IMG/VR virus record: IMGVR_UViG_3300002098_000043 | Span: 1 to 55,616 of that record | Direction: 5' to 3' (one strand) | DNA: 55,616 nucleotides | DNA from: a virus | Taxonomy: Duplodnaviria; Caudoviricetes | Shown: piece after piece, positions 1 to 54,941 of the stretch | How the letters are laid out: each line of letters begins with the position of its first letter | Numbering within the stretch: position 1 is the stretch's first letter | The notes under the pieces: generated by a model | Databases searched by the model: none | What the model was told of the DNA's origin: nothing | The model's input: only the letters and a program-made list of their open reading frames with translations | Program-made: the position numbers and the translations under genes

Positions 1-101
1 TGGGAATAATATTAGGACTAACTATTGGATACAATATAGCGAAACGAAAATTTAAACAACCAATTAAATAGAACAACATGGACAATAAGGAAATAGAGAA
101 A
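1..101 (+). repeat. Left copy of perfect 101-bp inverted repeat at window ends
   Basis: 1-101 is the exact reverse complement of 55516-55616; contains the start MDNKEIEK shared by ORFs 78..641 and 55096..55539. Confidence 0.97.
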
Positions 102-641
102 TCGCCCAAAAAAGTTATTAAAGAGCTTTATCACTTTGAAATAACAGACGATAATGAGTCCGATGATTGTGATTTGGATTGGACAGATGTATTGGATTTA
201 ATGAACCAATTTGCTTTCCAATTTTTAAAACAACAAACCCCCGTATCCATCCCCACTAAGTCCCCCTCATTAGTAAGTGAGATTGATTTAGAAGCTATGG
301 CTTTAAAAAAGTATCCTGTCGATATTCAAATGAAAGACGCGGGAGGCGCAACTGAAGATGTCAATCGAAGTGATAGATTTACTTATAAACAAGGACTTCG
401 TGATGCGTTCTCCACTCTTCTAGTAAAGGAAGGAGAGAAGGATTCTGAGGATTGGATTTCTGTTTCTGAAAAATTGCCCGAAAATGAAGGGGAGTATGTT
501 TTGGTTGCAAATAAAAACGGAATACATTATTCTATTCATATTTATAGAAACAAATTATGGTATGGTTATGGAAATGCCTATCATACAAATGAAATAACCC
601 ACTGGATGCCATTACCATCCCCTCCAAAAACTGAAAACTAA
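78..641 (+). CDS. Mosaic phage protein with C-terminal DUF551-like domain
   Basis: WISVSEKLP...VLV...THWMPLPSPP signature typical of DUF551. Confidence 0.75.
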   Translation: MDNKEIEKSPKKVIKELYHFEITDDNESDDCDLDWTDVLDLMNQFAFQFLKQQTPVSIPTKSPSLVSEIDLEAMALKKYPVDIQMKDAGGATEDVNRSDRFTYKQGLRDAFSTLLVKEGEKDSEDWISVSEKLPENEGEYVLVANKNGIHYSIHIYRNKLWYGYGNAYHTNEITHWMPLPSPPKTEN

Positions 642-652
642 AAATCTAAGAA

Positions 653-832
653 ATGATGAGTAAGGAGATAAGAAATGAAATTTTACAATCGAGTTATTGG
701 GAACATTTTAAAGCAGCGAAAGACTTAGCTCTTATATTGCCTTTAAACCATCCAAAGAGGATAAAAATAGAAAACGAAGTAAACAAATTGTCACAATCAC
801 TAACCATCCCTACTAAGGGAGTAAACAAATAA
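653..832 (+). CDS. Small hypothetical protein (59 aa, MMSKEIRNEILQSSYWEHFK...), not in ORF track
   Basis: Open frame ATG 653 to TAA 832 fills the gap between co-oriented genes. Confidence 0.65.
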   Translation: MMSKEIRNEILQSSYWEHFKAAKDLALILPLNHPKRIKIENEVNKLSQSLTIPTKGVNK

Positions 833-837
833 AGGAT

Positions 838-1044
838 ATGAGGATAGAAGAAATAAAAAAACAAATGTCTGAATACAGGGATTTTTACGGAGGTGATTTA
901 CTTGTATTTGATGAAATTGAAAAAGCAAAAACAAAAAAAGAATTGTCAAAAATAATAGATAGGCATTCTAGTAGATTAGAAGATATGCTGTCGGACGCCC
1001 ATTCTCATTTAGATAATTTTAAAAAAAAACTTGGATTAAAATAA
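838..1044 (+). CDS. Hypothetical protein
   Basis: Compact ORF starting at the end of a conserved homology block (aaggatATG). Confidence 0.7.
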   Translation: MRIEEIKKQMSEYRDFYGGDLLVFDEIEKAKTKKELSKIIDRHSSRLEDMLSDAHSHLDNFKKKLGLK

Positions 1045-1062
1045 TTAAAACACCCAAATAAG

Positions 1063-1701
1063 ATGAGCAACAAAAACAAGATATTAACAGAAGAGGACTA
1101 TGTAAAAGAATTTGTTGAACTGAATGGATTAGGCGCAACTGAAACAACGGGCATTATGAGTTTAAAACATTTTGAACAAATGCTCAGAGAATTTTCAGCC
1201 CTCAAAAACAAAGAACTATCTACCTCCCTCCAAGAAAAAGAAAAGGAGATACAGGAATACCACCAAAACAGCGTAACAAAAGGAACATATCTTGAGCTTG
1301 AGAAAGAATATTTTAATTGCTTAAAACTTCTTGAAAAAGAAATTGATAAACGAGTTGATTTGGAGGAGGAAATAGAAGAACTGAAAGGGGACAGAGATAG
1401 GCAGGGTGTGTTGATTTCTGATTTAAAAAATGCCATACCTCCGTTCAGAGTTGGTAAAAAACAAAAGAGAACAATACTTGATTCAACTGGACATGAGCTA
1501 GGTATTTTTACAACAGGACAAGAAAAAATCGCCCAACTGTTCTGCGATTTTTTAAACACAAACAACCAAAAAACATTAACCTCAGAATTGGAAGTAAAGA
1601 AGGGGGAGGGAGAAATACCTATTTGTGAAACGTGTGATGTAAAAGTATTACAAGAGGGCGGTTGTAAATGCGTTAAATGTGGTATGGTTTATCCTTTTTA
1701 A
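1063..1701 (+). CDS. Mosaic coiled-coil protein with C-terminal Cys zinc-finger
   Basis: Shares NKELSTSLQEKEKEI, EIEELK and ELExKKGEGE with 54014..54607; CxxC...CxxC tail. Confidence 0.75.
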   Translation: MSNKNKILTEEDYVKEFVELNGLGATETTGIMSLKHFEQMLREFSALKNKELSTSLQEKEKEIQEYHQNSVTKGTYLELEKEYFNCLKLLEKEIDKRVDLEEEIEELKGDRDRQGVLISDLKNAIPPFRVGKKQKRTILDSTGHELGIFTTGQEKIAQLFCDFLNTNNQKTLTSELEVKKGEGEIPICETCDVKVLQEGGCKCVKCGMVYPF

Positions 1702-6900: not shown

Positions 6901-9900
6901 GGTTTATAGAGAGTGTTTTATTGGAAGGCGACCATTTACCAGCTGCGTCTAATTTTTTATCATATATGACTTTTATATTAGGTAATACGGATTGTATATG
7001 TTGAGTAACTTTTAATATAGCTTCGTGTTTATCAAGTTCTAAAGTTGGAGTTGACTCCTTTTGTTTCTGAAACACATCTTCATCCCCTTCTTTTCTGCGA
7101 ATAATATCAATTATTTTATTACCCCAAATATAAAATTCATTCTGATTTTCGGAAAGTTTAGTTATTTCATCATTGCCTAATTTTTCAATCTCATCAACAA
7201 TGTCATTAAATGTATTTTCAATCCCTTCATTTTCTGCTTTAGTAAATTTCTCAGAAATAGCTTTTTCCATTGGATTTATTTTTTCTTTCCAACGATCAGC
7301 TAAATTTTGTGCCATATCGGTTCTGTTATCAAAACCAGATAATACTTCTTCAACAGCGTTTAAATAATCACTTGTATCGTATTTTAAATCAGAATTAGCT
7401 TCCCATAATTCATGGGCTATTTCTTGCCTTGTAAGTCCGTGTTTATAAGACCATAAAGTCCATCGACTCTTTTTTTCATTTACATCTCCCTTAAAATATT
7501 TAAGCAAATCATTTCCTTCAACAAGACCATTCTTAATAAAGAATTGAAGCGCTAAATCATAAGGAGTGTTGGCTTCAATTTCCAAAGCCTTTAAACGAAT
7601 AGGTTCTTTTATTTTTCTTTTGTGTCTTGGCTTGCCTTTTGTTTTAAGGCGAGTTTGCGACACTTCTCCAGAAATTTCTTCATTGTTTCTGGTGGTAGAT
7701 TCCGTTCGTGTAACGGCATCCCCTTCTGTTGTGTGTTGTCCTTCATTGATTGCTTCTACGATTTTTTCTGTTTCAGGTTGCGTATTCTCATTTTTATTGC
7801 TAATAGTCTCAACGCTAGGTTGATTTTCTCCAGACGGTCTGTTAATTGCTTCGATTTCATTTTTAGTTAATTTAACTGTTTTTAAATGTTGAAGTTCCTC
7901 ATTTTCTTTTTCTTCTATTTCTTGGGCTTTTTCTTCACCCATCTTTAAAGCCCTATTCTCAAAATATTTTTCATTAGCCTTCCCCTTATCTTCTTCTCTT
8001 ACATATCCTACATGTTTCCCTGTTTCTGCATTATATACAGGTAAAACAATGCGTCCTGTTGTTAATCTTACTGGTTTAATAACAACTTTATGTCCATCAA
8101 AATCTTTAGGTAAATTCTCTATATGTAAATGTCCGCGAAGCTTACTTTTAGTATCAGTAGCAGATGAGGCAAATATCACATACTTATCATTAGGTAATTT
8201 AATATGAACCGTATCATTTCCCTCCTTCATTAGCTTCATTTCACCAACCTGAACCTCATTAGAAGTATCTAAATGTTCTGATAATATTTTAAATTTATCC
8301 CACGCTCGTTTCTGATTCCAATCACTAGTTGGTATCTCTTCAAATATTCTTGTTTCAACTACTTCAGGTTTCTTTGGTTTATTTTCAACCTCAGCAAGTT
8401 CACCTTTATGTTTTTCAAACAAGTCTTTAATACCAGTAACAAATTCTACTTTCTTTTCCCCTTCTTTTGGTTCAGGAGTTAAATTTTTATCAATTTCTTC
8501 AACCGTCTTTTTTGCGGATGTTGTTTCTTTTTTAAGAACTTGTGATTTAAGTAAAATTTCATCAACTTCTTTTTGAATATCCTTCGCCTCTTTCTTTAAA
8601 GTTTGAATTTTAGCCTGTTCAATAGCATTCAATTTATCTTCTTCGTATTCACTTGGGATTTGATTTTCAAGATTAGCCTTTTCAAATGTTAACTCAAATA
8701 CACGTTTCTTATCTTCATCCTTTAATTTAGTATCACGGGTTTGATTATAATATTCTTTATAAGCATTTACTTTAAATGCAGCTTCATCCGCTTCTTGTTT
8801 TGTAATTTTCCCCTGAGACAATTCATTATTAAGATTCTTGTGAAACGCATATATTTTACCCAAATCTCCCTTAGCAATATCAAAAGCGCTATTATTCTGA
8901 GCTTCCTGTTTTGCCATTGCTTTTGCTTTATTATAAGCAACTACTGTTGGCGTTCCGCCAATAAGTCCAGCCATTCCATTTTGGATATATTCACCAAATG
9001 ATTCAGGGCTAAAAGCATCTGTACCGAATTTCTTCTTTTCGGCTGGCGTTAATTTATCCCATAATTGCTCTCCTGCATTTTGAACGAATTGCTGTAAAGC
9101 TTCTTGTCCGCCTTCTGCTAATACATCCTTTGTAGTTAGCTGTCCGATTTTCTTAGCAACCTGAGTATAGCCAGTAGCAGTTACTTTAAGTAATTCCTGC
9201 ATACCATCTTTAGTAATTTTACCCTCAGCGTCCCGCGGAACACCTTTACCAAGCGCTTTTAAAAATGCGTTCTTTTCTTCTTTAGCTACAGGGCTACCAA
9301 ACATCTTTGTTCCCAGACCCCACTTAACATCAATAGCTGAAACTATTGGCGCTACAACAGAGGTAAATAACGCTCTATCGCGTCCTGTTAAGCCAGCTTC
9401 AGTAGCAGCGTCCCTAACTTCACCTAAGTTAGTTAAAGTCGATCCTACCATATTAGCAACAATTTGGGTCTTTTTACCTAAATCCGCCACTCCTAACGCG
9501 CCTTTAGCTGCTTTTGATGCTGCACTGCCACCTACATAAAATTCACCAACAGAACCAAGTAACCCGTTAACCGTTCCCCATAAAGCTTCAGGACTTACAT
9601 CTATACGTTTAGAGTCTAGTAAATCCGACCACTCATCAATACCTTGTGTATTAAATAAAGACTTTTGTAAATCTTCGTCTTTTGTAGCCTTTAAATAATT
9701 AGCCGAATTTTTTAATGTGTTAAGCCATTCCGATTCTTTATTAGTTACACCTTCATATCCTGTTTGTAATAAATCAATAACATTTTCTGCGGATGAGGGC
9801 AATACATTCCATATTGTTTTAGCTAAGTCCGTAAATGGATTGTCATCATTAGCATCTTTTTGGCTTCCCCAAATACTTGCTATTTCATGTCCTACTGGCG

Positions 9901-11699: not shown

Positions 11700-14600
11700 T
11701 TAAATATTATAGTATTTATTTTGGTCTTGTTGTGCCGCTAATTCTGAAGCATAACGTCCAGCTCCCACTAAATTAGAAATTCCTTTTCCTAAAAGGACTT
11801 GATTAGCGTATTGATTCTGATTCCATGCGTTTAGTTTGTCTTCAAATAATTGGCGACTCATTCCTGCTTTTTGTAACGACAAATCAGTAGCGTAATTTTG
11901 CTTATCCATCATATAGTTATTACTTGCTACTTTAGCAGCTAATCCTCTACCCCATCCTTCGTTAATAGCGCTACGCTCCATATTAAACGCATTGCCACCA
12001 CTACCACCTGAATAAGCCCTTGCGGATGCCCTTGCTAAATTAGTAGCATTTTGGTTCTCCTGATTTATTTGCGCCCATTGTTCAGGACCAAATCCATAAT
12101 TAGCATTAGCTTGCGCTCTATTTACATTAGCTTGAAAGGTAGGGTCGATTTGACCAACAGGACGTGAACCAGTTTGATTTAAATTCTTTAATCCTAAATT
12201 TATTTGTCCTAACGATGCTGCTGTTTCAACTGCACTTCCGAGCGCTGGTGTCCATGCCGACCATGAGAAATTAGGTTTTTTATTTCCTGTTTCTGCACTT
12301 GTTTCTTCTGCCGCTGGAGAAGTTGTTTTTACATCCGCCATTTTAGTTTGCGGTTTATTTTGTTTGCCGATATAATCAGCCAAAGAATAATCCTGTGGTG
12401 AAACATAGTTTTCGTTTGTTGTTTTATTTTCAGTAGTAGGTTTTGTTTGGTTAACAGTTGTAACTTTTTTAATTCCTGTTGGTGCTTTTGTTATAACTGA
12501 AGCTGTTTTAGGACTAATATTATAATCACGATTTAATTTATCACGTTCAATTCTTATATCCCTTAATCTTGTATCAACTCCTGCTTTTCCTTGATTAGCT
12601 AATAATTGTTTTTCTTCTTTATCAATATCAGCCAAACGTTTCATTGCATTTGGTCTATTGGTTTCTTTACGTTTGTTTTCTTCAATAGCTTTCTTTTCTT
12701 CTGGAGAAATATATCCGCCATCTTTATAGCCAATCATTCCACCATCATATTTACCTGTAAAGTTCTTAGCGAAATTAGCCATCATAATTACATGTTTATC
12801 ATATTTATCTTTATTAGCCATTACATGGTTAGCCGCTTCAGCAACACTCATTTTATGTTCTTTTGCCCATTCTGTAAAACGTCCGCGATGACTCGGTTCA
12901 ATCATTACTGTCCCACCTTCTGCTTTTCCGCCACCTCCAGCGATAAAACCGAAATAATGTTTTTGGGCGGTTGTCAAAGGCTTTCCATTTGCCTGATCAT
13001 CTCTCAACATTGTCTTAGCCTTTTCTGCGGTCAATTCCCCGCCATGCGCCATGTGTAATTTTTCAATCTCATCATATTCGTGTTCTGCAATATCTTCCTT
13101 TCTTTCTGCATTTGGAGCTAATTTTTTAAATACATCTTCTCCTAATTTTTCCTCAACTTTCTCTGCTTCTTTTTTTGAAAATAATACCTCGCCATTACTT
13201 AACTTAACTGGAATTCCGCCACCCTGTTTTAAATTAGCTTTTACACTTGGTGCTTTTTTCAATACAACTTTTCTTATTTCTTTTGCTATATGAGCATTTT
13301 CAACTGGCACAACTTCAGCCCCCTCTTTAATATTAGCATTAATAGAATCGGATTTTCCAGTTCCTTTACCAACAATTTTACCGCCATCTGCGAAACCAAT
13401 TTTATTTTTTATTTTATCTAATGGACTTACTTCTTCTGTTGGGGCTTTTAAATTACTTATATAAGTGCTATTAGTCATTGTTTTACCGATATCCCTATCA
13501 TTGTAAGCATTCTGAAAAGCTTGTTGTCTTTTATCAGCATCCATTTGCATTTGCTGATGATATTTAGCTTGATTAAAGGCATTATCTCTATCTGATTGAC
13601 CATATAAAGCGTTATTAGCAATCCATCCACCACCCGCACCTAAAGGTCCAGCCAATAACCCTAAAACACCTACTCTGCCTAAATCCCTTCCTAAATTGCC
13701 TTGTTTATAAGAATTTAATACATGTTCATGAATTGGGGTTGCAGTTGTATTGATAACATCGCCACTAAAAGTTTTTGGCTTAGAAATCATTTGTCCTGTA
13801 TAAGGATCAACAACTGTGTCTTTATCAACCGCCCCCCTCACTGTTTGTTGTGCTTGATTAGCAATTCCTAACCACCCTAAAGAACCTTGTACTTTTTGAC
13901 CTAAATTCCTTTTATCTGTTGGCGAATCTACATTTTGTTTATTATTTTGTTGTGTCGTTAAAGGATAATCGCCTTGTGCCTGAAATTCAGTGCCATTAAC
14001 TTTTAATTGATTATTAGCAGATATTGGGTTATTAGGGTCATATACATCGCCGCCATTATCATATCCTAATTTTTTAATTCCTTTAGGAGCTTTAGTAATC
14101 TTACCGCCAGCTTTAAAAGTAGGAGAAGTAATTGCTACATTAGCATCTCTTTTTTTTAATTCAGTTGTAGGCAGCTTATTAATATCCATAAGTCCAGTAT
14201 TAATCCCTTGACTTGATTTATCAAATCCTTGAGTGTTTAATCCCTGAGATGTGTTTTCCTGAAATTTATTACCAGTCATTTCAACTGGATTTTGACTATT
14301 ATCTAATTGAGTAGATACAGAATTTTTATTAATATCATTACTCATTATAGCGGTTTGACCCAAATTTTCAGGAGTAAAATCTGCTTGAGTTTTACCTGTA
14401 AATATTGGATTATAGCCTTTATCATTAAAGTGTTTAGTTAAATCATCCGCAGGTCCTAAATCAGCGCCAATAGGTCCTTTAGTCGAGTCATTATTAAACG
14501 CGCGAACTGTTGCTCCCGACATCCCTGATCCGTTTTTTAAATCAGGATAAGAAATAGTGTAATAATTACCATAATCATTTCTCTTTTCTTCTCCCCTTGC

Positions 14601-14972
14601 AGATACATCTGTATTAACACCAACCTTTGGAGGCACTGTAGGAGGGCTTTCTTTTAAATGAACTATTTCTTGATTATAAGTATCCGTTGGTTTAGTTTCT
14701 GTACGTGGTGTAGGGCGCGGCTTTTGAGGCGCTCCTGTACCAGTGCTAACACCTGTTTTTGCAGCCGTCTTATTAAGAGATGGAGGCGTTACTCTTTTTG
14801 GAGCTGAAGCTTCGCTTTCTTTATAATAATAAACCTTACCGTCTTTTACATCTTTTTTGTAACCTTCTGACAAAAGCTGTTCTTCAGTTTTATCAACTTG
14901 TTTGCTTTTTGTATAATCTAACGGTCTTTTTGGTTTGCCACCATCCTGATAGCCAATTCTTGGAGCTTTCAT
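11700..14972 (-). CDS. crAss-like cargo protein (gp45-like)
   Basis: Repeated (Y/F)xxGG motifs, IEPSHRGRFT...ANFAKN motif, low-complexity segments; follows the muzzle gene. Confidence 0.6.
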   Translation of the reverse strand: MKAPRIGYQDGGKPKRPLDYTKSKQVDKTEEQLLSEGYKKDVKDGKVYYYKESEASAPKRVTPPSLNKTAAKTGVSTGTGAPQKPRPTPRTETKPTDTYNQEIVHLKESPPTVPPKVGVNTDVSARGEEKRNDYGNYYTISYPDLKNGSGMSGATVRAFNNDSTKGPIGADLGPADDLTKHFNDKGYNPIFTGKTQADFTPENLGQTAIMSNDINKNSVSTQLDNSQNPVEMTGNKFQENTSQGLNTQGFDKSSQGINTGLMDINKLPTTELKKRDANVAITSPTFKAGGKITKAPKGIKKLGYDNGGDVYDPNNPISANNQLKVNGTEFQAQGDYPLTTQQNNKQNVDSPTDKRNLGQKVQGSLGWLGIANQAQQTVRGAVDKDTVVDPYTGQMISKPKTFSGDVINTTATPIHEHVLNSYKQGNLGRDLGRVGVLGLLAGPLGAGGGWIANNALYGQSDRDNAFNQAKYHQQMQMDADKRQQAFQNAYNDRDIGKTMTNSTYISNLKAPTEEVSPLDKIKNKIGFADGGKIVGKGTGKSDSINANIKEGAEVVPVENAHIAKEIRKVVLKKAPSVKANLKQGGGIPVKLSNGEVLFSKKEAEKVEEKLGEDVFKKLAPNAERKEDIAEHEYDEIEKLHMAHGGELTAEKAKTMLRDDQANGKPLTTAQKHYFGFIAGGGGKAEGGTVMIEPSHRGRFTEWAKEHKMSVAEAANHVMANKDKYDKHVIMMANFAKNFTGKYDGGMIGYKDGGYISPEEKKAIEENKRKETNRPNAMKRLADIDKEEKQLLANQGKAGVDTRLRDIRIERDKLNRDYNISPKTASVITKAPTGIKKVTTVNQTKPTTENKTTNENYVSPQDYSLADYIGKQNKPQTKMADVKTTSPAAEETSAETGNKKPNFSWSAWTPALGSAVETAASLGQINLGLKNLNQTGSRPVGQIDPTFQANVNRAQANANYGFGPEQWAQINQENQNATNLARASARAYSGGSGGNAFNMERSAINEGWGRGLAAKVASNNYMMDKQNYATDLSLQKAGMSRQLFEDKLNAWNQNQYANQVLLGKGISNLVGAGRYASELAAQQDQNKYYNI

Positions 14973-14991
14973 TTGCTATATGATTTTGGTA

Positions 14992-14999
14992 TAAATATA
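14992..14999 (-). promoter_or_regulatory. Bacteroidota-type -7 box (TATATTTA) for cargo operon
   Basis: About 20 nt upstream of start 14972; variant of TAnnTTTG. Confidence 0.45.
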
Positions 15000-15023
15000 G
15001 CAAAAGTTATATTATCATTATGA

Positions 15024-15641
15024 TTAATTTTTCACAATTCTATTCCCACAAAGCTCACTCGTACAATAGCCGCCTTTATAAGAAATATGAACCCCGTGTG
15101 CCCTGTCTAACGGAATCAACATGGCTGCATTATGTAACGGTTCATCTTTTAATAAATTAAAAGCAGTTAAAGAAGCTGTTTCAGACATATTTTCAATGGT
15201 CCCATGTACCCATGCTCCCCATGAACAATTTTCACTTGTGCCAAATGTTTTTGTGTCACAAACGTAATCCATTCTGTCCTTAGTTTCTTCTCCAGTAAAA
15301 TGAGCTGTATTTCTAATTTCAGCGTGCATTAAATGAGTTTTATTATAACTCATCCACATATTATGATTCATTGCCATAATATAAAGTGTATCACTCCATC
15401 TTAACTCACAAATACCTTTAGATTTTCTGTATTCATTAAGCTTTTTATGAAACTTCTTAGCTGTTAATAATTCAAGTCTTGAAACAGAGTCTGTTCGGTT
15501 CATTATAATTGGAATATCCCACACTTTATACACCTGTCCAGTACATTTTGAAGCAATTAATAAAAAAGCTATTGAAAACAATAACACAATTATAATTGTT
15601 CTTCCATCACGCTTAGGGTCTTTTTGCAAGTCTAAATACAT
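15024..15641 (-). CDS. Secreted/membrane-anchored CAP (SCP) domain protein
   Basis: N-terminal hydrophobic helix; LNEYRK..G..L.W..L..A.NH..M...H...R...EN...PLH..AM pattern of CAP domains. Confidence 0.75.
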   Translation of the reverse strand: MYLDLQKDPKRDGRTIIIVLLFSIAFLLIASKCTGQVYKVWDIPIIMNRTDSVSRLELLTAKKFHKKLNEYRKSKGICELRWSDTLYIMAMNHNMWMSYNKTHLMHAEIRNTAHFTGEETKDRMDYVCDTKTFGTSENCSWGAWVHGTIENMSETASLTAFNLLKDEPLHNAAMLIPLDRAHGVHISYKGGYCTSELCGNRIVKN

Positions 15642-15659
15642 AAGTTTTTATTTTTAAAG

Positions 15660-16532
15660 TTAAACATTTATTGATTTATTTAGAATTATTTCAAACAAAT
15701 TATCTGTTTTTCTGTAATTATACCTAAAACAAAATTCATTAATATAATTAGCCAAATATCGTCCTGAAATTTGATGAAACTGTCCATAAATACCTCTTTT
15801 TAATATTGCCCAAAATCCTTCAATACTATTTGTATAGAATCCATTTTTAGAAAATATACCTTGTTGATGATTAACTACTTTGTGTTTATATTCATCCTCT
15901 AAACCTTTATAACCGCCAAATCCATCAGTAACAATTGTAGACCCTTTTAAAATATATCCTTTTATAAACGGGTGTAAAGATTCTTGCGAAGGCGTTTCGC
16001 TCATTATAAAACAAGCCACTTTTCCGCCTTGTTCCAACATTCCTAATATTGGTGTTTTATTTACATATCCCCGTCCTTTTTTATTATGAATATCCCGTTG
16101 CCATTTATGTTGATTAGAAACATCTGGACCATGAAAATATTCATCCATTTGAACAATTCCACTTAAATAATCTATTTTTTCAATAAAAGCTTTACGAATT
16201 CTCATAAGCATAAACCAAGCTGTGTTTTTATTTATTTTAAGTTCTCTTGATAACTGCATAGCGCTAATGCCTTTTTTAGCATTAACCACTGTAGAAATAG
16301 CTAAAAACCACTTTCTAAGATCACATTTAGTATTGTGAAATATGGTATTAATGGTTACACTAAATGTTTTATTACAAGAATTACAATGATGCCGTAATTC
16401 TTTTTTCGCGGATGAAATTTTAACTGATTGACAATAAGGGCATATAGGCTTATTATTCCAACGAATCTTCTCTAAATACTTAATACAGTGTTTTTCTGTT
16501 TTAAAAGTTTCATATATTTGCAGTATATTCAT
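15660..16532 (-). CDS. IS1595-family (ISXO2-like) DDE transposase, intact
   Basis: Zn ribbon CPYC...CNSC, HTH, DEYF, TDGFGGY, NSIEGFW..LKR, YINEFCFRYN motifs. Confidence 0.93.
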   Translation of the reverse strand: MNILQIYETFKTEKHCIKYLEKIRWNNKPICPYCQSVKISSAKKELRHHCNSCNKTFSVTINTIFHNTKCDLRKWFLAISTVVNAKKGISAMQLSRELKINKNTAWFMLMRIRKAFIEKIDYLSGIVQMDEYFHGPDVSNQHKWQRDIHNKKGRGYVNKTPILGMLEQGGKVACFIMSETPSQESLHPFIKGYILKGSTIVTDGFGGYKGLEDEYKHKVVNHQQGIFSKNGFYTNSIEGFWAILKRGIYGQFHQISGRYLANYINEFCFRYNYRKTDNLFEIILNKSINV

Positions 16533-16550
16533 TTGTTATCGGTTTTATAG

Positions 16551-16578
16551 TATAACGAATGAGTATTAAAAAGGTTAC
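16551..16578 (-). promoter_or_regulatory. ECF-sigma-like promoter GTAACC-N15-CGTTATA upstream of transposase
   Basis: Same motif at 48711-48741, 49798-49826 and 3899-3930. Confidence 0.5.
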
Positions 16579-16697
16579 TAAATTTTATAACTTTTAACTA
16601 TTTTAACAAATATGGGAACTTCCCACCTACAGGTAGAGACTGAAGCTAAATTTATTGATTTTGCGGGCTCATGCTTGAAATAGTGGAAGGCTTATGA

Positions 16698-16934
16698 TTG
16701 GAATTTGAGAAAGATTCACTAGGTCGAAAAATAACAACAGGTAAATTTATTTATTCTTTAAGCAAAGAATTAGAGGCTAAGTTAAATGAAGTATTAGAAA
16801 CTCATTATAAATCCTCTCCATTTACCATAAATGAAATTAGATTTAAAGTTCATACTGATGAATCTGGTAAATTAATATCTACTGCAAGTGTTGATGTTGG
16901 ATTAATTGGTTATGATCCAAAGAAAAAAGACTAA
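16698..16934 (+). CDS. Cassette hypothetical protein (start uncertain)
   Basis: TTG start directly preceded by in-frame TGA; in-frame ATG at 16671. Confidence 0.45.
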   Translation: MEFEKDSLGRKITTGKFIYSLSKELEAKLNEVLETHYKSSPFTINEIRFKVHTDESGKLISTASVDVGLIGYDPKKKD

Positions 16935-17161
16935 ACACATTTCTTAAATGAAGACTCAAATACATTTAAAAGCATCTTTTGTTCAAAGCCAAATTCATCA
17001 TCTTCAAATTTTACATATATTTCCAATATACCATCTACAATTTCAGAAACAACATCAATAACATTTCTTTTTTCAAAATGATTACCAATAATATTTTCAT
17101 AACAACCTTTAAGTTCTTGCTTCTTAATAAAAACTGTTTTTATTATTTCTTGATCTTTCAT
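16931..17161 (-). CDS. Cassette hypothetical protein
   Basis: TATATTTA box 4 nt before the ATG; converges on upstream ORF. Confidence 0.6.
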   Translation of the reverse strand: MKDQEIIKTVFIKKQELKGCYENIIGNHFEKRNVIDVVSEIVDGILEIYVKFEDDEFGFEQKMLLNVFESSFKKCV

Positions 17162-17180
17162 ACACTAAATATACTAAACA

Positions 17181-17375
17181 ATGAAAAATAAGCACCTACA
17201 GGTAGAGAATAACCAATTAATTTCTGATAATAAAGAACTTAAAAAGCTTTACAATGAATTTATTTCTAAATGTAAGGAGTTTGATTTAAAATACGGGTCG
17301 GTGGATACAGCAAAGAAAATGATGGAATTTAAAGGTAAATGTGTTCTATTAATAGATAGGTCTATTATTAAATAG
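17181..17375 (+). CDS. Cassette hypothetical protein whose N-terminus (HLQVE) is encoded by the repeat site
   Basis: aaacaATG context; cacctacaggtagaga in codons 5-10. Confidence 0.55.
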   Translation: MKNKHLQVENNQLISDNKELKKLYNEFISKCKEFDLKYGSVDTAKKMMEFKGKCVLLIDRSIIK

Positions 17376-18003
17376 TTTTTTGATACTTTTTGCTAAAATC
17401 CTCCAATGATATAAAATTATAATCATCATCGTCCCTTAATTCTATAAAATATACATTATATTTTAGTGCGGGATGAGACAAAGCGTAACTTTCATAATGG
17501 TCAATCATATCCATGTCAATTGCATTAACTAATCCCATTACTGGTAATACTATAACTCTTTCTATATAAATAGGTTCGTTTTCGTTTAAAAACAAAACCT
17601 CTGTTTCTTCATGTTTTATGTATTTATCAAGTAACTCTAAAGCCTCTATATTTTTCATACCATAAAAATAGGCTTTTTTTTCCTTTTCTAGCTCTTTAAG
17701 TTCCTTACTATACTTTATACTAAGACTTTTTATAAGATTTTCTCGCTCTGCTTTTGTTTTATCCACCACAACTCCTACCATATTCTCCTTCTCATACTTA
17801 TATTCTTCAAATTCTCTTTTTAAAAGCAAATGTTCAATGGATAAATCATGTAATCTGTTTTCTTTTTCTAATAATTCCTTTTGACGATAAGCTTTTCTTT
17901 CAAACACAGCAAAAATTATTTGAATTAACTTATATAATAAAAATCCACCTACTATTAAAACTATCCCTCCTATATTCCCACTTAAAACAAACAACATTGT
18001 CAA
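17368..18003 (-). CDS. Membrane-anchored coiled-coil protein
   Basis: N-terminal TM segment followed by E/K-rich helix. Confidence 0.7.
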   Translation of the reverse strand: MTMLFVLSGNIGGIVLIVGGFLLYKLIQIIFAVFERKAYRQKELLEKENRLHDLSIEHLLLKREFEEYKYEKENMVGVVVDKTKAERENLIKSLSIKYSKELKELEKEKKAYFYGMKNIEALELLDKYIKHEETEVLFLNENEPIYIERVIVLPVMGLVNAIDMDMIDHYESYALSHPALKYNVYFIELRDDDDYNFISLEDFSKKYQKTI

Positions 18004-18013
18004 TGTTTTTAAT

Positions 18014-18604
18014 TTATTTTTCTACTTTTTCGGGATGAGTTATTACATTATTTTTATAAAGTCCATTTAATGCTTTGTTAAAAAATTTAATAGTTAATGG
18101 TCTTGCGCGTTTACTATAAAGCCCATCAGAAAATACTTTTCCATTAATCTTTACAAATGGATTGTCTTTACCTATATCGTATAAAAACATCGTAAAAAAC
18201 ATATTTACCATATTGCCACCGCCTGAAAATATCATTGTATTTCCAATGTTATAAGCGCTAAATGAATTATTAGAAATTGGCGCGTTAACCGACTGAATAT
18301 CTACAACAGCCATCATATCGATTTGCTTCTCTTTTAAGACCTTTTCTATTTCTTCTGAAGAATATTGCCGTATGGCTGGAAATAATGAATTATAACTAAT
18401 GGTATTATATCCCCGATTAGTTAATATTTCAATAATAGCATCATTAACGCGCCCATCCGCATTAGTTTTAAATAAGATATTTTTATAGATTTTTGCCGTA
18501 TGCGTAGGATCAGCTTCCATATAAATATCATTCGCGAGTTTTGTTTGAGAATGGTTAACTAACCAAATAAACATTAGTAATAAAACACAATGTATTTTAT
18601 TCAT
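18014..18604 (-). CDS. Secreted/periplasmic hypothetical protein
   Basis: Signal-peptide-like N-terminus ending ...NHSQ. Confidence 0.7.
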   Translation of the reverse strand: MNKIHCVLLLMFIWLVNHSQTKLANDIYMEADPTHTAKIYKNILFKTNADGRVNDAIIEILTNRGYNTISYNSLFPAIRQYSSEEIEKVLKEKQIDMMAVVDIQSVNAPISNNSFSAYNIGNTMIFSGGGNMVNMFFTMFLYDIGKDNPFVKINGKVFSDGLYSKRARPLTIKFFNKALNGLYKNNVITHPEKVEK

Positions 18605-18850
18605 TTTGACAGGTTTTTATGTCACTAATGTTCCGAATGGACGTTATTAAATAATCAGGCGTGGAACATTTAGAATACTTGTTGCCGAGGTGTTTCGAAT
18701 ACCCACAAATCAAATAAACTAAAGTCCACGCCCTTTTCTGGCGCAAGACGCATAGCTAGTTGTGATCTGTGTGGTTGGAATTTTTCGAAACTTTCGGCAA
18801 CCAAGCAAAACTAACGCTTGCAATTTTATACCAATAACTTAAGTATCAAT
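18605..18850 (-). ncRNA. Structured 5' leader / cis-regulatory RNA
   Basis: Long stem 18678-18699 / 18784-18805; alternative pairing 18658-18667 / 18724-18732; TATATTTG promoter at 18852-18859. Confidence 0.55.
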
Positions 18851-18941
18851 ACAAATATAGTCAAAAAGTTATTGTTTCTTGAAACCTTTTTATAGGGGAA
18901 AACACCCTATTCCTATCTGTTAAATTGGGTATATTTAATGT

Positions 18942-19181
18942 ATGAATGAAACGTTAGCAAATAGACTAGTTGGAATATTGAAAAAGTCCGACTTAATAGG
19001 AAAAAGTTTTTACAATAAATCTCAAATGGATGAAAAAACAATTAGTGACTTTGAAACAAGCCAAAAAGCAAATTCAGAAGAATGGGCTATTTATGTTATT
19101 TGTGGTGAAGAAATTGAATTGGGAAATATTCCAAGAATAGAGTTAAATGTTTTATTTTCTACTTATTCCGAACTTTCGTAG
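18942..19181 (+). CDS. Cassette hypothetical protein
   Basis: TATATTTA box just before ATG. Confidence 0.6.
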   Translation: MNETLANRLVGILKKSDLIGKSFYNKSQMDEKTISDFETSQKANSEEWAIYVICGEEIELGNIPRIELNVLFSTYSELS

Positions 19182-19398
19182 GCTCTATAAGCAAATAACT
19201 TATATCATTTACTATTGTTACTTTAATGTGACGTTCTGATAAAAATCCTGTTTCAACTTTCATATAAATAGCAGGATATTTATATTTAGCTGTTTTATAA
19301 TATTTAGATAAAACCTTGTTAAGGTCTTTTTCAAGTTTATCCTTAATGCTTTTAATCTCTTTAGCTGGAACTCTATTTGGATTTAATTCTTTTGCCAA
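19159..19398 (-). CDS. Cassette basic hypothetical protein
   Basis: TTG start; converges on 18942..19181. Confidence 0.5.
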   Translation of the reverse strand: MAKELNPNRVPAKEIKSIKDKLEKDLNKVLSKYYKTAKYKYPAIYMKVETGFLSERHIKVTIVNDISYLLIEPTKVRNK

Positions 19399-19518
19399 TT
19401 TGAGCGGAACTCTTAACCATTCTTTAAATAATGATTATTTTCACTACCTGTAGCTAAGAAGTTCCCAATTTTCATAAACAAATATAATCAATAAAAATAT
19501 TCATCCGAAAAATTTTTG

Positions 19519-22500
19519 TTAAAACTTCAACTTAAAATAGCTTATTACTCTTTGTAACAATTTGATTCCCTTAACCAAAACAGTTGGATCGGTTGTCCAA
19601 TTTTTCTTAAAATATCTTACAATAGTGTACATCCCCGAAACCTTCCCATTCGTTGCAATAGGTTGATTATGATATAATCCTTCATCAACAATCTGATAAT
19701 TCCTATTCCACGACTTTACATTATTATCCTGCGCATTTTGAGTTTGATTAGAATAATAAAAGTCCGTAAAATTCTCATTATTACCAATATCAACAGAATA
19801 ATCTGTCGCAAATCCTTGTTGAGTTTTAGGATTCACAACAAAAGTTATATCGTTATTAACAATCTTACCATAAAATTTATCATATTGATAACCATTCAAT
19901 GTTAATGAATAAGGCGCTTCTTCATTTTCAATATAAATCTCATTAGGCGCATTGATTTGCTGTAAATTAGGGTCATTCACTAAAGGATAGGCATTTATTG
20001 TTTCATCCGCCAAAAAGATAAACTCTCCCTCTACATTACCTATAACCATTCCTGTTTTAGCAAAAGTCGGACAAACCATATCTGAAGCATAATAAATATC
20101 CGCGTTTTTTGGATTATTAGCTGATAATACCGATTGATTATGATTATGCCACAATGCAGGAGTTTTATCAAAAAACCCTACAAATTTATTTAACACATGA
20201 CTAAAACCTATTGTAAAGTCTTTAGCCAAAACTTGATAATCTAAATAGTTAAACATTACAGAAGGATCAGGACCATTTTGATACCACGATCTAAATTTGA
20301 ATGTCAAATAACTCATTTTATTTTTTGAATCATAAACCCCAACAATACCTGTGCCAATCAAAGGTCTATCAGAGCTTATATCAAAAGTCTGAGAATTTAA
20401 ATACGTCCCTCCAAAATAAAGAGTTAATCTTTCTAAAAATACTTCACTAAAATATGATTTAACGCCTGTGGGAACGGTTATTTCTGCAATACTTCCATTT
20501 AAACTCATTACACACACATCTTTGTTGTGCATATCAAACCAAATCCATCCGTCAGTTGTATCAGTTAAACCGTGTTGGTGTTGATTGCCAAATTTATTAG
20601 TTATCAAATCAAAACGATTAATAACACCGCCAGTACCTAAAGTAGTAACCGACCCAGTTGAACCTGATTCAATAACCCTTTCTAATATTGGAACAGAACC
20701 AACCGCTAATTGCTGCCAATAAAACACATAATCACCTTTAGGACGCACATTATTAATCTCGCCATATTGACCATTAACATCCCTATAATCGTTCGTTAAA
20801 AAGACTCTAAATGAATCTATTGGCTCACCAATTATTTTTTGTCCAGCCCATCTAATTCTAACAGGAAAACGTCCTGCAAAATTTATGTTAACTGGTAGCG
20901 CAGGATATTTAAAAGCATTTCCTTCACTTGAATATCCATTATTATAAGAATAATCTTCTAGTCCTAAATTAGCCCCAGCCCCACCATTATATGTCACTCC
21001 CTGTGTATCATTCTGCATCCCGAAATCAGAAGTTTTACGCCCCCTTCTTAAATTGTAATTACTATTGCATTCACAAGGAAAAAGCACGGCATAACCGCTT
21101 GGCGAATTAGTTGCAGGGGCAAACGTCATCCCTCCTAAATAATTTACATTAAATAAACCATAACCCTGATCTATAATACAAGTAAAACAATCTCCACCGC
21201 CAATTTGAATATTATCAAAAACTAAAAAATTCTTACCACCTATAACCGTTAAATTATCCGCAATAACTGTTGAATCTATTTTTTGATAATGTCCTGTTGA
21301 AATATAAGTAGTAGCCGCCAACGCCGAAGCGCCTGTACCACCATATTGATTAGCATTTGGAATAATATAATTAACAAGTGCTTTATAAGGATTGGTTCCA
21401 TTAGCGCCAGTTAAATCCGAATAACTTTGTGCCTGATTATAATTATTAAAATCAGTCAACGTTCTAACCATTATTTTTTTGCCGCCAACATATCCTACTT
21501 GGCCAACAGAGCTAACACCACCTCCAACACAAGTAAAATCTATGTTATCTGTAACTGCACCTGTATAAGAAAAATCATTATAAACGTCCACGTTAGGCAT
21601 AAAATTTACAACAGAATCAGCTTCATTCATCCGTGCATAATTAGTCACGGTTGATTCATTATTATACGTAATATTAGTAGCATTAACGTGTGTATATAAT
21701 TTACTTGCCCACTCATTAGAAGGATTGCTATATTGTTTATATAAAGCCCCTCCAGAATAAGCCAATCCGTTTAACCATCCGACAACCCTCATAGTATCGC
21801 CAACATTCATAAATTTACTTCTTGTAAATGTTTCTGATACTAAATCATCAGGACACATATAAGAATAAATGTGATTAGCGTTATTGGCGTGTCCATTTCC
21901 AGTAGCTAATTTTAATTGTGGCAACGGCAATACTGCGGTTGGTCCTGCACCAACTTCCTGCGTCTGCCAACATAATCCTTGTGAAATAATAACAGGATCG
22001 CGTTCAGCTCTTACAATACTAAAACCATCTATTTGAGTATAGATTTCTTCAGGTATTTGCAAGCCGCTAATGTTAATTAAATTCGGCTGTAAACAAAACC
22101 AATTACTTGTTGTTCCTTTATCAATTAATAATCCATTTTTAGTATAAATAGAATTAAATGAATGATCGCCAATCCATCTTACATAAAAAGGATTTCTTTT
22201 TTTATCATAAAATAATATTCCAAACCTGTATTTTTCATTGCTCCAATACCCTTTTGCCATTGATGCAACCGCAGGATTTCTATAATCCCATCCGTTATCA
22301 ACGGTCATTTCAACATTATTTTTTCTTTGATTAGTGTTGTTTTGTGGATTATATTGATTTAAAGAAACGCAAGGTCTTATCTGAGCGCCAACTGTATGTT
22401 GCGCCCAATTTTTATAACCAGCTAAAGCATTGTTTCCTATAAAAACATCCCCGACATTATAAAATGTTCCCGAACCAGTAGGATATTCTGCTGTACCAAC

Positions 22501-23979
22501 AGTAACTAACCATCTTGTTGCGTGTTCTATGCCGCCAACGGTTGCAGGATTAGCACCAATAGTTGGATTAATGCCTGTTCCTCCTTGACCAAACTGCATA
22601 ACGTTAGAACAAGAACCAGCGCTTGAATCGTTGTCTGCTGGCATTTGATATATATAATCACTCAAAGCAATTGTTGAAATATCAAAACTTGAAAATTCCT
22701 GTCTTTCAACAATATTTGCAATTACATTATAATTCTTATTAGTAGTAATTGTTTTACACTTCCGTATAGTAGTCGTAAATAACGTTATATCATCAATAGT
22801 AAGTGTTCCTAAATTTACATTTCCAAAATCTTCTAAAGTCATTGTTGTTCCTGTAATAGAAGTAGAAACAACTATTGCTATTGAATAAGGGATTTCTTCT
22901 TGTTGGTCAAATTCAACACAAGCAAGTTCGATTACATCATAAGTAGTATCAATATTATCAATACTTAACTGAACTGATTTACCACTATTCACTATTGTTG
23001 TAAGTGAACCAGCGCCGACATAATTATGCTCTGTGCTTATTAATGGTAATGGACTTTGGTCTTTACCTACATGAACTGGAAACATTCCATAACTCCACGA
23101 TGTTTGAAATCCTCCACTAGAAGATTTTAAACGATAGAAATACATACTATTACCGCAATTCTTACTTCCTGCTCCGAATCCCGTGAATTTAATATTTCCT
23201 AAATTAGAATCTGGAGTCCAAGATAAAAGTGAAATATCATAATATTTAATCACTAACGTATCTGAGGTAAGTGGAGTAAAATTAGCATTAACAGCTGTAA
23301 AAATTGTTCCTGTACCTAGTCCATAACCATAATCAATACCATTATGAGTAGCCGCTCCACTAACAACCATATATTCAACTCCAACTGATAAAGCATTATC
23401 GTCAATATAAGTTGTATAAATTGAATTAGCTGTATCTAAAACTCTCGGTTCATTAAAATCATCTGTCCAATAAACTCTCTGTACATTATCATTCTCAGGA
23501 AAAGCAAATCCTTCAATCTTATACATCTGCGAAAAATTCAAATCTTTATGAGTATATAAAGGAACATACCCATTAAATGTCATTGTGGCGTAATTAGTTG
23601 TAATTGTTTGTGGATCATATTCTATACTTTCACCAATATTAGTCAAAAATAAAACGCCAATTCTGCCATATCCACCACCTGAACTATCAATATAAGTATC
23701 AAATACAATTAATTTATTAGGAAATGAAATAAAAGCTATTGACAAAGGTGGTACGCCATAAACTATCGGTCCAGTTGAATCAATCGGTCTTGGCAATGTG
23801 AAAATCACTCTATTTCCATAAGTATCTTTTAAGGTAAAATTATTACCATCACTATTAATAATTTGAAAATTCCTTGCGTCCCTATAAGTTCCTTGTGGTT
23901 GGTCATAAGGCGAAGTATCTTTAAACATTCCTTCGCCAAATGTATTTATATGGGTAAAAATATTATCGCCTTGTTCCAT
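19519..23979 (-). CDS. Tail muzzle / stabilisation protein (crAss Tstab, P22 gp10-like)
   Basis: 1486 aa; NTFGEGMFKD..P..QP..TYRDARN N-terminus, VYWTD..NEPR, YRFGI.F, DSFRVF motifs; follows ring gene. Confidence 0.75.
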   Translation of the reverse strand: MEQGDNIFTHINTFGEGMFKDTSPYDQPQGTYRDARNFQIINSDGNNFTLKDTYGNRVIFTLPRPIDSTGPIVYGVPPLSIAFISFPNKLIVFDTYIDSSGGGYGRIGVLFLTNIGESIEYDPQTITTNYATMTFNGYVPLYTHKDLNFSQMYKIEGFAFPENDNVQRVYWTDDFNEPRVLDTANSIYTTYIDDNALSVGVEYMVVSGAATHNGIDYGYGLGTGTIFTAVNANFTPLTSDTLVIKYYDISLLSWTPDSNLGNIKFTGFGAGSKNCGNSMYFYRLKSSSGGFQTSWSYGMFPVHVGKDQSPLPLISTEHNYVGAGSLTTIVNSGKSVQLSIDNIDTTYDVIELACVEFDQQEEIPYSIAIVVSTSITGTTMTLEDFGNVNLGTLTIDDITLFTTTIRKCKTITTNKNYNVIANIVERQEFSSFDISTIALSDYIYQMPADNDSSAGSCSNVMQFGQGGTGINPTIGANPATVGGIEHATRWLVTVGTAEYPTGSGTFYNVGDVFIGNNALAGYKNWAQHTVGAQIRPCVSLNQYNPQNNTNQRKNNVEMTVDNGWDYRNPAVASMAKGYWSNEKYRFGILFYDKKRNPFYVRWIGDHSFNSIYTKNGLLIDKGTTSNWFCLQPNLINISGLQIPEEIYTQIDGFSIVRAERDPVIISQGLCWQTQEVGAGPTAVLPLPQLKLATGNGHANNANHIYSYMCPDDLVSETFTRSKFMNVGDTMRVVGWLNGLAYSGGALYKQYSNPSNEWASKLYTHVNATNITYNNESTVTNYARMNEADSVVNFMPNVDVYNDFSYTGAVTDNIDFTCVGGGVSSVGQVGYVGGKKIMVRTLTDFNNYNQAQSYSDLTGANGTNPYKALVNYIIPNANQYGGTGASALAATTYISTGHYQKIDSTVIADNLTVIGGKNFLVFDNIQIGGGDCFTCIIDQGYGLFNVNYLGGMTFAPATNSPSGYAVLFPCECNSNYNLRRGRKTSDFGMQNDTQGVTYNGGAGANLGLEDYSYNNGYSSEGNAFKYPALPVNINFAGRFPVRIRWAGQKIIGEPIDSFRVFLTNDYRDVNGQYGEINNVRPKGDYVFYWQQLAVGSVPILERVIESGSTGSVTTLGTGGVINRFDLITNKFGNQHQHGLTDTTDGWIWFDMHNKDVCVMSLNGSIAEITVPTGVKSYFSEVFLERLTLYFGGTYLNSQTFDISSDRPLIGTGIVGVYDSKNKMSYLTFKFRSWYQNGPDPSVMFNYLDYQVLAKDFTIGFSHVLNKFVGFFDKTPALWHNHNQSVLSANNPKNADIYYASDMVCPTFAKTGMVIGNVEGEFIFLADETINAYPLVNDPNLQQINAPNEIYIENEEAPYSLTLNGYQYDKFYGKIVNNDITFVVNPKTQQGFATDYSVDIGNNENFTDFYYSNQTQNAQDNNVKSWNRNYQIVDEGLYHNQPIATNGKVSGMYTIVRYFKKNWTTDPTVLVKGIKLLQRVISYFKLKF

Positions 23980-44566: not shown

Positions 44567-44599
44567 ATATTTGTATTTCAGCCTCTCGCTGTGTTACAA

Positions 44600-54607: not shown

Positions 54608-54661
54608 GGTATTATGATAAAATAATTGTGAATAATGCCGTTAATGTCTTGTTTTCGTTTG

Positions 54662-54907: not shown

Positions 54908-54941
54908 ATCCTTTATTTGTTTACTCCCTTAGTAGGGGTGG

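Follow-up and report, generated by a model that had tools for sequence, protein, structure and literature searches.

The window, i.e. the whole stretch of phage DNA analysed here (55,616 nt), contains at positions 15642-19518 a block of about 3.9 kb of the IS1595 family, which is a lineage-specific insertion in a freshwater crAss-like phage, a distant member of that group, whose host probably belongs to the Bacteroidota. Its position is a variable junction with a structural phage gene on either side; the G+C content is 0.25-0.30 within it, whereas that outside is 0.33-0.38. The genes and sites in and around the block are listed in Table 1. The same junctions were found without differences in contigs from four runs, two of which may be the source of the DNA, and the block is therefore not an assembly artefact.

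Table 1. Genes and sites of the IS1595-family block and its flanks (positions in the window)
Feature	Position	Strand	Remark
CAP-domain protein gene, native, left flank	15024-15641	-	PF00188
IS1595-family transposase, 290 aa, intact	15660-16532	-	outside the cassette bounded by inverted repeats
Transposase leader, 80 nt	16533-16612	-	phage-type -7 box CATATTTG
Direct repeat, left copy	16600-16613	+	ATTTT-AACAAATAT; abuts tip of A
Palindrome TGGGAACTTCCCA	16613-16625		first 13 nt of A, its tip
Site A	16613-16639 (tip 16614, interior to right)	+	TGGGAACTTCCCACCTACAGGTAGAGA; left terminal inverted repeat of cassette
Cargo ORF, 78 aa	16698-16934	+	no known family
Cargo ORF, 76 aa	16931-17161	-	no known family
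Cargo ORF, 64 aa	17181-17375	+	codons 5-9 are site B
Site B	17193-17208	+	matches the inner 16 nt of A exactly (AGGTAG half and 3 further nt)
Cargo ORF, 211 aa	17368-18003	-	hydrophobic N-terminal stretch
Cargo ORF, 196 aa	18014-18604	-	hydrophobic N-terminus, signal-peptide-like (by eye)
ORF-free spacer, 337 nt, more GC-rich	18605-18941	-	upstream of 196-aa gene
Cargo ORF, 79 aa	18942-19181	+	no known family
Cargo ORF, 79 aa	19159-19398	-	start 69 nt inside site C
Site C	19441-19467 (tip 19466, interior to left)	-	reads TGGGAACTTCTTAGCTACAGGTAGTGA; right terminal inverted repeat
Direct repeat, right copy	19468-19485	+	ATTTTCATAAACAAATAT; abuts tip of C
'Muzzle'-like virion protein, 1486 aa, native, right flank	19519-23979	-	PHROG virion structural protein; 157 relatives

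The block is of foreign origin. Among 25 related-phage loci, the 13 with enough downstream flank were all ordered p254, muzzle-like gene, (CAP gene), p1090, and the transposase and the seven cargo ORFs were present in none of the 25; the motif of sites A, B and C was absent in the 15 relatives checked. A preliminary description of this DNA had envisaged relatives with invariant cassettes and no transposase; the transposase is indeed absent from them, but the cassettes are absent as well. At locus L172 the CAP gene follows about 60 bp after the muzzle-like gene, at locus L168 a single unrelated ORF of 119 aa lies between the two, and the CAP homologues of both loci have the same N-terminus as the gene in the window. 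An empty site at matching sequence was not found among the relatives without the block, which are at most 60% identical at the protein level, a distance at which they cannot stand in for exact empty sites.

Regarding the transposase, the early placement of an intact gene outside the A-C interval, about 80 nt from A and pointing away from it, was confirmed. The product matched PF12762 (2.2e-35), PF12760 (6.8e-11) and NF033547 (1.6e-55, 188 bits vs a cut-off of 75), and the columns of D130, D203 and E238 and of the zinc-ribbon residues C31, C34, C50 and C53 were invariant across 28 homologues. The closest relatives (P0002-P0004) were 75% identical and every other one at most 53%. Between the ATG (16532) and the outer tip of A the distance is 80 nt, and the gene reads away from A. 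No end was present to the left of the gene, as had been noticed earlier; the end profile, scored at every window position, yielded there only a 4.2-bit half-match at 15511, which falls in the part of a native phage gene that encodes the conserved N-terminus, and canonical inverted repeats with a target duplication around the transposase, also sought, were not found. The leader (16533-16612) lacks the AGGTAG half of a normally oriented end and gave no minus-strand match to the end profile; its motif TTCCnATATTTGTT recurs in the promoter region that precedes the gene at 44566. A P63C gene was absent from the window (best tblastn match E = 0.19).

Sites A, B and C proved to be as first described. 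A and C are imperfect inverted repeats, identical at 23 of 27 positions (hand count) and with 10 identical nt in common at their tips, and B, which repeats 16 nt of A exactly, is a solo half-end from which the cleaved tip is absent; all six differences between B and A fall within the first 11 nt (p ~0.002 for a random spread over 27 positions, hand count). Exact copies of CTACAGGTAG occur in the 55.6-kb window at A, B and C only, and with at most one mismatch there were 6 matches in the window vs 1.47 expected, a number reached by none of 100 shuffles. The motif TGGGAACTTC alone was not over-represented in the window (4 matches vs 2.27 expected; 20 of 100 shuffles reached 4). The 4-2-4 palindrome CTAC-AG-GTAG, pointed out at the outset, is real in the window but unconserved in the family, where the conserved part of the ends is AGGTAG and most ends read TTTAAGGTAG. 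Inside the palindrome at the tip of A lies a minus-strand match with one mismatch (16616-16625); read toward the transposase, this palindrome is 91 nt from the ATG, within the usual family distance of 66-109 nt. The same palindrome was also flagged as a weak terminator-like hairpin.

A and C are ends of the IS1595 type. Over 24 columns they align free of gaps and in register with the ends of 16 bacterial elements, the tips of which were fixed by target duplications, and they have nearly all conserved columns (GG.AA..TC..A..TA.AGGTAG) together with the same two lineage-specific changes. With a profile made from the 16 bacterial ends only, site A was the top match of the window (7.7 bits, E 0.43) and site C the fourth (5.7 bits, E 1.9), scores that are low in absolute terms, as the model is a short one and the ends in the window differ at two otherwise conserved columns. 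In the same alignment A and C both have their cleaved tips directed outward from the 2.85 kb, which is therefore the interior of the element.

The norm of the clade was taken from 80 independent metagenome loci, in which end matches of at least 15 bits were counted (n = 81). Of these ends, 47 lay upstream of the transposase gene, 66-109 nt from its start and with the tip pointing away from the gene, 33 lay downstream in inverted orientation, and one was of another kind. Both ends were present at 25 loci, 1911-3979 bp apart, and copies inside one genome confirmed the element boundaries. The normal element is a 'transporter IS' of 1.9-4.0 kb with the order inverted repeat, about 90 nt, transposase, P63C-domain gene, variable cargo, inverted repeat. 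The P63C gene directly followed the transposase in 25 of 27 complete elements (PF10546 confirmed in 5 of the 5 scanned); the cargo was variable (71 ORFs in 37 clusters). A transposase outside the ends was not seen at any of the 47 loci with an end upstream of the gene. Of 25 rows compared for a target duplication, 16 had one of 8 bp, one had one of 7 bp and eight had none.

The A-C element measures 2853 bp, inside the family size range, and has both ends and seven passenger ORFs, none of which encodes a transposase domain or is a P63C gene. The seven small genes reported initially, mostly as convergent pairs, were found to be three convergent pairs and one further ORF, with both strands used. 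The 211-aa ORF found only itself among 1.84 billion representatives. The 196-aa ORF is rare, with four homologues at 60-63%; the clusters closest to it hold unnamed proteins of Bacteroidota (score 0.91), which is a lead only. For the spacer that precedes the 196-aa gene, unusually good folding is predicted (minus strand, z = -4.89; plus strand, z = -2.55), and an Rfam match was not found.

With the termini set in family style at 16614 and 19466, the flanks of A-C read ACAAATAT and AATTTTCA, and hence an 8-bp target duplication is absent, as had been noted from the start; given that eight of the 25 family rows have none either, this absence is weak evidence. Directly next to each end of A-C is a displaced copy, of 14 and 18 nt respectively, of the imperfect direct repeat ATTTT(CATA)AACAAATAT, and ATATTTGTT occurs six times in the window vs 3.05 expected. 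The repeat is either an insertion footprint or a repeated phage -7 promoter box, for which we take the consensus to be TAnnTTTG; such boxes abut both A and C. No second copy of the A-C cassette was found in the window or in IMG/VR. Joints indicative of excision or inversion, which the preliminary description had proposed to look for, were not seen in the contigs of the four runs, contigs being unable to reveal rare forms.

The block is a rearranged transposon and not an integron-like system, and it probably consists of two parts, a transposase-less IS1595 cassette and, stranded beside it, an intact transposase of the same clade. The first part (16614-19466) is, judged by its sequence, a complete transposase-less element, by definition a mobile insertion cassette and apparently derived from a 'transporter IS'. 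The second part is the intact transposase gene, which has lost its P63C partner and its own two ends. We infer an active cassette, an enzyme that serves it in trans, and a path of rearrangement leading to the present order. That the enzyme and A/C are a cognate pair is suggested by clade-level comparison, in which the enzymes are about 50% identical, and by adjacency. Of the models first put forward, that of a non-autonomous mobile insertion cassette fits, with A and C as canonical ends of the clade and no transposase between them; the adjacent enzyme may mobilise it in trans.

An account that we hold to be improbable, if still worth weighing, is that one or two transporter elements of the IS1595 family inserted at the junction and were later scrambled through deletion or recombination, the ends, site B and the transposase being immobile leftovers. 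This would agree with the lack of a target duplication when 16 of 25 family rows have one of 8 bp, with a transposase that has neither ends of its own nor its constant partner P63C, with the truncated end at B, and with a structure identical in four runs and free of variant joints; the outside geometry, seen in 0 of 47 comparison loci, is what an accident would predict. However, the transposase ORF is of full length and has kept every catalytic and zinc-binding residue, both cassette ends retain the conserved columns and the 10-nt identical tip, and the eight family rows without a duplication (plus one with 7 bp) weaken the first of these points.

In an integron, a tyrosine recombinase (intI) acts with attI and attC and cassettes are captured in one orientation; the enzyme gene is placed outside a row of small repeat-delimited genes, from which it diverges. 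The window resembles this layout in that its enzyme gene is outside and divergent from small genes delimited by repeats, and the preliminary description had accordingly offered as one model a domesticated DDE enzyme that captures, excises or inverts cassettes at A, B and C. In its favour, the enzyme is intact, a two-gene unit lies between the direct repeats A and B, the cargo genes are orphans, and the enzyme clade is associated with variable cargo. Nevertheless, we regard this model as very unlikely. The 'recombination sites' are ordinary IS1595 ends of inward polarity, i.e. inverted transposon ends, which removes the case for an integron based on a DDE enzyme; there is one full site pair and one half-site only, and the palindromic core is unconserved in the family. 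Further, cassettes are in both directions, the layout is unconserved, and the variable cargo of the family always has the enzyme with it inside the ends (47 upstream ends, 0 flipped). Enzyme, sites and cassettes are all absent at the junction in related phages, rearranged forms were not found in the four runs, and a tyrosine recombinase and attC-like folded sites are absent.

Still less credible, and in our judgement extremely so, is that A, B and C are regulatory sites of the phage (operators or promoter elements) and resemble IS ends by coincidence: B and the tip of A do overlap ATG-initiated frames at the same offset, and phage-type -7 boxes adjoin A and C, but the rest of the 55.6 kb has no further exact copy, a presumably cognate transposase adjoins, and the match to family ends extends over 24 columns. 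The earlier suggestion that the whole phage is the transposon, with A and C as outward-facing ends and the 2.85 kb as junction DNA, may draw on a transposase beyond the A-C interval and the missing target duplication around it, but is practically impossible, being contradicted by the polarity of the tips, by record termini formed of imperfect inverted repeats of about 1.6 kb that have no relation to A and C, and by the absence of A, C and the enzyme in the 13 related phages of the same gene order; unlike in a Mu-like transposable phage, where transposon ends stand at the genome termini and their interiors face the phage genes, the ends here enclose 2.85 kb and are not at the termini.

If the block is a cassette with a stranded enzyme of its clade, as preferred here, the enzyme, produced from the adjacent gene, would bind A and C at their AGGTAG halves and cut both at their GGGAAC tips; the 2.85-kb cassette would then move by cut-and-paste with an 8-bp duplication, and the transposase gene would stay behind. 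The half-end at B keeps the presumed binding half without the cut site, and may be either a recombination scar or a retained, putative binding site. The outside position might even be a functional geometry, a 'launch pad' on which a resident IS1595 transposase loads in cis on the near end and exports or exchanges transposase-less cassettes without ever being lost, with B retained as a guiding or regulating site; we think this decidedly unlikely. Were it true, the phage would be a source of enzyme-less IS1595-type cassettes for other environmental phages.

Insertion sequences of the IS1595 family with passenger genes are known as 'transporter IS' (Siguier, Gagnevin & Chandler 2009, as far as cited in PMC3129680 and PMC8496243). 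The element in the window is like these in transposase family, 24-nt ends, size range and variable passenger genes, but differs in that the transposase is outside the ends and that P63C and the 8-bp duplication are absent. Mobile insertion cassettes (MICs), such as MIC231 of Bacillus cereus, were described by De Palmenaer et al. 2004 (as cited in PMC3129680 and PMC3281130). As far as MICs are characterised in those citations, A-C resembles them in being bounded by IS ends, in carrying passenger genes and no transposase, and in having an enzyme of the same clade elsewhere in the same genome; unlike MIC231 (IS4/IS231), it belongs to the IS1595 family and is phage-borne, its enzyme gene is 80 nt from one end, and its mobilisation is putative.

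The locus clearly exemplifies an IS1595 cassette that has no transposase of its own while the phage carrying it encodes an intact enzyme of the matching clade, and it bears on the spread of such cassettes, with their orphan genes, among environmental phages. The mechanism of IS1595 transposition has, to our knowledge, been little studied, and the enzyme and the A/C ends form a simple pair for testing it. For a large IS1595 clade, the comparison set in addition provides a record of end sequence, spacing and 8-bp duplication, and of P63C as the constant partner.

The transposase is an IS1595-family enzyme (PF12762, PF12760, NF033547), and its catalytic residues (D130, D203 and E238) and four zinc-ribbon cysteines fall in invariant columns across 28 homologues. 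Relatives numbered 2252 at E <= 0.001, three of them 75% identical and the rest at most 53%; a metagenome scan for transposases yielded none above 52% identity, and a search for close relatives recovered only two fragments, of 35% identity. The gene starts 80 nt from site A and reads away from it. All the features listed in the preliminary description were found at their positions, including seven ORFs of 64-211 aa between sites A and C, arranged as three convergent pairs and one more.

Features in and around the insertion, with their positions in the window
Feature	Position	Strand	Remarks
Inverted terminal repeat, left	1-1614		
CAP/SCP-domain protein gene	15024-15641	-	PF00188, secreted
End-profile half-match	15511		4.2 bits
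Foreign block	15642-19518		transposase and A-C
Transposase ORF	15660-16532	-	290 aa
Reading frame at A	16611-16682		23 codons
Site A	16613-16639	+	
A-C element	16614-19466		2853 bp
Reading frame at B	17181-17375		
Site B	17193-17208	+	
Structured spacer	18605-18941	-	337 nt, ORF-free
Site C	19441-19467	-	
Inverted terminal repeat, right	54017-55616		

For comparison of the transposase, 80 bacterial loci were fetched. In multi-copy genomes a repeated unit starts about 96 nt before the transposase ATG and continues to 1-1.5 kb past the stop (2373 bp in L039/L041, 1957 bp in L043/L046); one sequence, in inverted orientation, bounds it on either side, and 8-bp duplications flank these ends. In 52 homologous loci, inverted repeats sought no farther than 350 bp from the transposase turned up at chance level only; the right ends are located 1-3 kb farther away. 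An end profile was then run on 80 independent metagenome loci, with 81 matches of 15 bits or more: 47 were upstream, at 66-109 nt from the transposase start and with the tip away from the gene, 33 were inverted and downstream of the gene, and one (L112, 241-263) was 750 nt upstream of the transposase, where an insertion may separate left end and gene. A flipped end, with the tip facing the gene, was found at no locus, the 47 with an end upstream of the transposase included. Both ends were present at 25 loci, at a spacing of 1911-3979 bp; an 8-bp duplication was seen in 16 of 25 rows and one of 7 bp in one more, with three pairs of rows representing the same element on two contigs. In 25 of 27 complete elements (including L088, L090, L095, L137 and L106) the transposase is immediately followed by a gene of a single family, approximately 300 aa long, and all five members scanned contain a P63C domain. 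The P63C protein appears to be a constant partner rather than random cargo. The other cargo genes vary (71 ORFs, 37 clusters) and are frequently antisense. Literature searches for the P63C domain together with a transposase, and for IS1595 together with phage or crAss, returned nothing relevant. The layout is that of a 'transporter IS', for which passages of PMC3129680 and PMC8496243 credit Siguier et al. 2009.

Sites A and C match as inverted repeats at 23 of 27 positions (hand count), and B is an exact repeat of the inner 16 nt of A. The 10-mer CTACAGGTAG has three exact copies in the 55.6 kb, at A, B and C only; with one mismatch allowed there were six matches against 1.47 expected, a number reached by 0 of 100 shuffles. 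Sixteen bacterial left ends were aligned to A and C free of gaps (consensus GG.AA..TC..A..TA.AGGTAG), and the two departures from otherwise conserved columns are the same in A and C. A palindrome that the preliminary description does not list is made up by the first 13 nt of A, TGGGAACTTCCCA. The palindromic core given there, CTAC-AG-GTAG, is a local accident; the part conserved in the family ends is AGGTAG (majority read TTTAAGGTAG). A sequence-only profile was made from none but the 16 bacterial ends and run along the whole window, position by position; the top match was A (7.7 bits, E 0.43) and the fourth was C (5.7 bits, E 1.9), scores that are weak in absolute terms for a 24-nt model. What matters is that the best match in 111 kb of strand adjoins the transposase. 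No end copies were found in the window outside A, B and C, and IMG/VR gave no match to the exact pattern of the ends. Site B retains exactly the AGGTAG half and 3 nt, with six differences from A within the first 11 nt. Under random decay, differences of this kind would be scattered, so their clustering points to B as either a recombination scar or a putative binding half kept by selection. A and B also coincide with codons 5-9 (H-L-Q-V-E) of reading frames whose ATG is 12 nt upstream of the common 16-mer; the frame at A is short.

With its termini placed as in the family, the A-C element has a length that falls within the family range, and the seven ORFs are on the interior side of its ends. 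The transposase of IS1595 transporter ISs is inside the ends, whereas that of the window is outside the tip of A and none is present inside A-C. Neither does A-C contain a P63C gene, the best tblastn match anywhere in the window having an E-value of 0.19. The lack of an 8-bp duplication noted previously was confirmed, the flanks of A-C reading ACAAATAT and AATTTTCA. Directly outside each end of A-C stands a copy of an imperfect direct repeat, ATTTT(CATA)AACAAATAT, which may be a footprint of insertion. A reading of the 9-nt AACAAATAT as a target duplication was dropped, with some ambiguity: at the right end it stands 11 nt off the terminus, and AACAAATAT coincides with a phage -7 box that recurs. 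This promoter box, ATATTTGTT, has 6 occurrences against 3.05 expected, and the motif TTCCnATATTTGTT is found also in the promoter region at 44598.

The earlier observation that the transposase has no matching end to its left also stood, the end profile giving there only a half-match. As a right end of the transposase this half-match was rejected: it sits without a duplication in the N-terminus of the native CAP gene and, given that this N-terminus is conserved, is a chance event. The palindromic tip of A can equally be read, in the orientation of the gene, as an end's first half, 91 nt from the ATG, which is the usual distance in the IS1595 family. By the end profile, the AGGTAG half is missing on the transposase side of the tip of A, and the transposase gene thus lacks any end that it could use. 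The insertion's left border is at most 18 nt from the transposase stop codon, exactly the place where the P63C gene would begin in family elements. The leaders of five comparison loci (L008, L010, L013, L118 and L150) hold a second copy of (A)GGTAG 20-35 nt upstream of the transposase ATG, which may be a subterminal binding or autoregulation site; no such copy was found in the leader of the window's transposase.

Relatives of the 1486-aa virion protein were aligned, and an alignment-based scan of IMG/VR retrieved 25 related-phage loci; pattern scans of IMG/VR with one protein at a time, the 1486-aa or the 1090-aa one, gave no close relatives, and a DNA search of GenBank phages with positions 14000-21000 gave no match. 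The 25 loci were compared with 14 window proteins by tblastn. The gene order p254, muzzle-like protein, (CAP-domain protein), p1090 is kept in the 13 loci with enough downstream flank, nine of which also reach p463 and p2123, and the transposase and each of the seven ORFs are absent from all 25. The G+C content is 0.25-0.30 across 15250-20000 versus 0.33-0.38 outside. Judged by these comparisons, the block is foreign to the phage. The CAP gene is conserved between the muzzle-like and 1090-aa genes, also in two related phages: in L172 it follows about 60 bp after the muzzle-like gene (14509-14571), and in L168, whose muzzle-like protein is 60% identical, it follows one unrelated 119-aa ORF (6993-7352). 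The end profile gave no match in 15 related phages under default filters. The junction between the muzzle-like and CAP genes is variable among related phages, and several other relatives have 0.3-1 kb of DNA without assignment before the p1090 homologue. The CAP flank gave one weak, sub-threshold PADLOC match (REase_II, E 0.0038). The window also encodes portal, major head and virion protein genes, and its terminase shares 23-27% identity with the terminases of crAss-like and Flavobacterium phages.

The best reading takes A-C for a mobile insertion cassette that arose from a transporter IS; beside it stands an intact enzyme of the matching clade, on this reading stranded outside by rearrangement. 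This agrees with one of three models put forward in the preliminary description, a non-autonomous cassette mobilised in trans; the enzyme could act on A and C in trans, aided by its short distance to A. A dead relic is a serious rival. Regarding the origin of the layout, simple inversions do not yield it, and a circle junction or tandem dimer was rejected: with another end abutted there, the transposase side would have a second AGGTAG half, and it has none. The second model, an integron-like platform in which a domesticated recombinase captures, excises or inverts cassettes, fails on the type of enzyme, on the identity and polarity of the sites, on a layout absent elsewhere in the family (0 flipped among 47) and on related phages that are without any part of the system. 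The third, in which the whole phage is the transposon, is contradicted by the polarity of A and C and fails also on the record's own inverted terminal repeats of about 1.6 kb.

As to the cargo of the cassette, Pfam, PHROG (above noise) and PADLOC gave no family for any of the seven ORFs, and no homologues were found in the 160 fetched transposon loci. The 196-aa protein has a hydrophobic N-terminus, signal-peptide-like by eye, and four homologues at 60-63% identity; its resemblance to unnamed Bacteroidota proteins is a lead only, and a tblastn search against phages gave no match. For the 211-aa protein there was no relative among 1.84 billion representatives. The spacer upstream of the 196-aa gene is more GC-rich and without a match in Rfam; for its minus strand, the predicted folding far exceeds that of shuffles (z = -4.89). 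A search for Rfam families and tRNAs found none.

Contigs from four freshwater metagenome runs, two of which may be the source of the window DNA, were compared over 13500-21500. They bridge the transposase-A junction, B and C with zero differences from the window, which rules out an assembly artefact. Excision or inversion joints were not found in the contigs of the four runs, in which rare variants are dropped. The same phage measures 53,262 bp in independent contigs versus 55,616 bp here. The ends of the window form imperfect inverted terminal repeats, with blocks 83-98% complementary, which suggests either that the genome is linear and its inverted ends genuine, or that the assembly folded back on itself.
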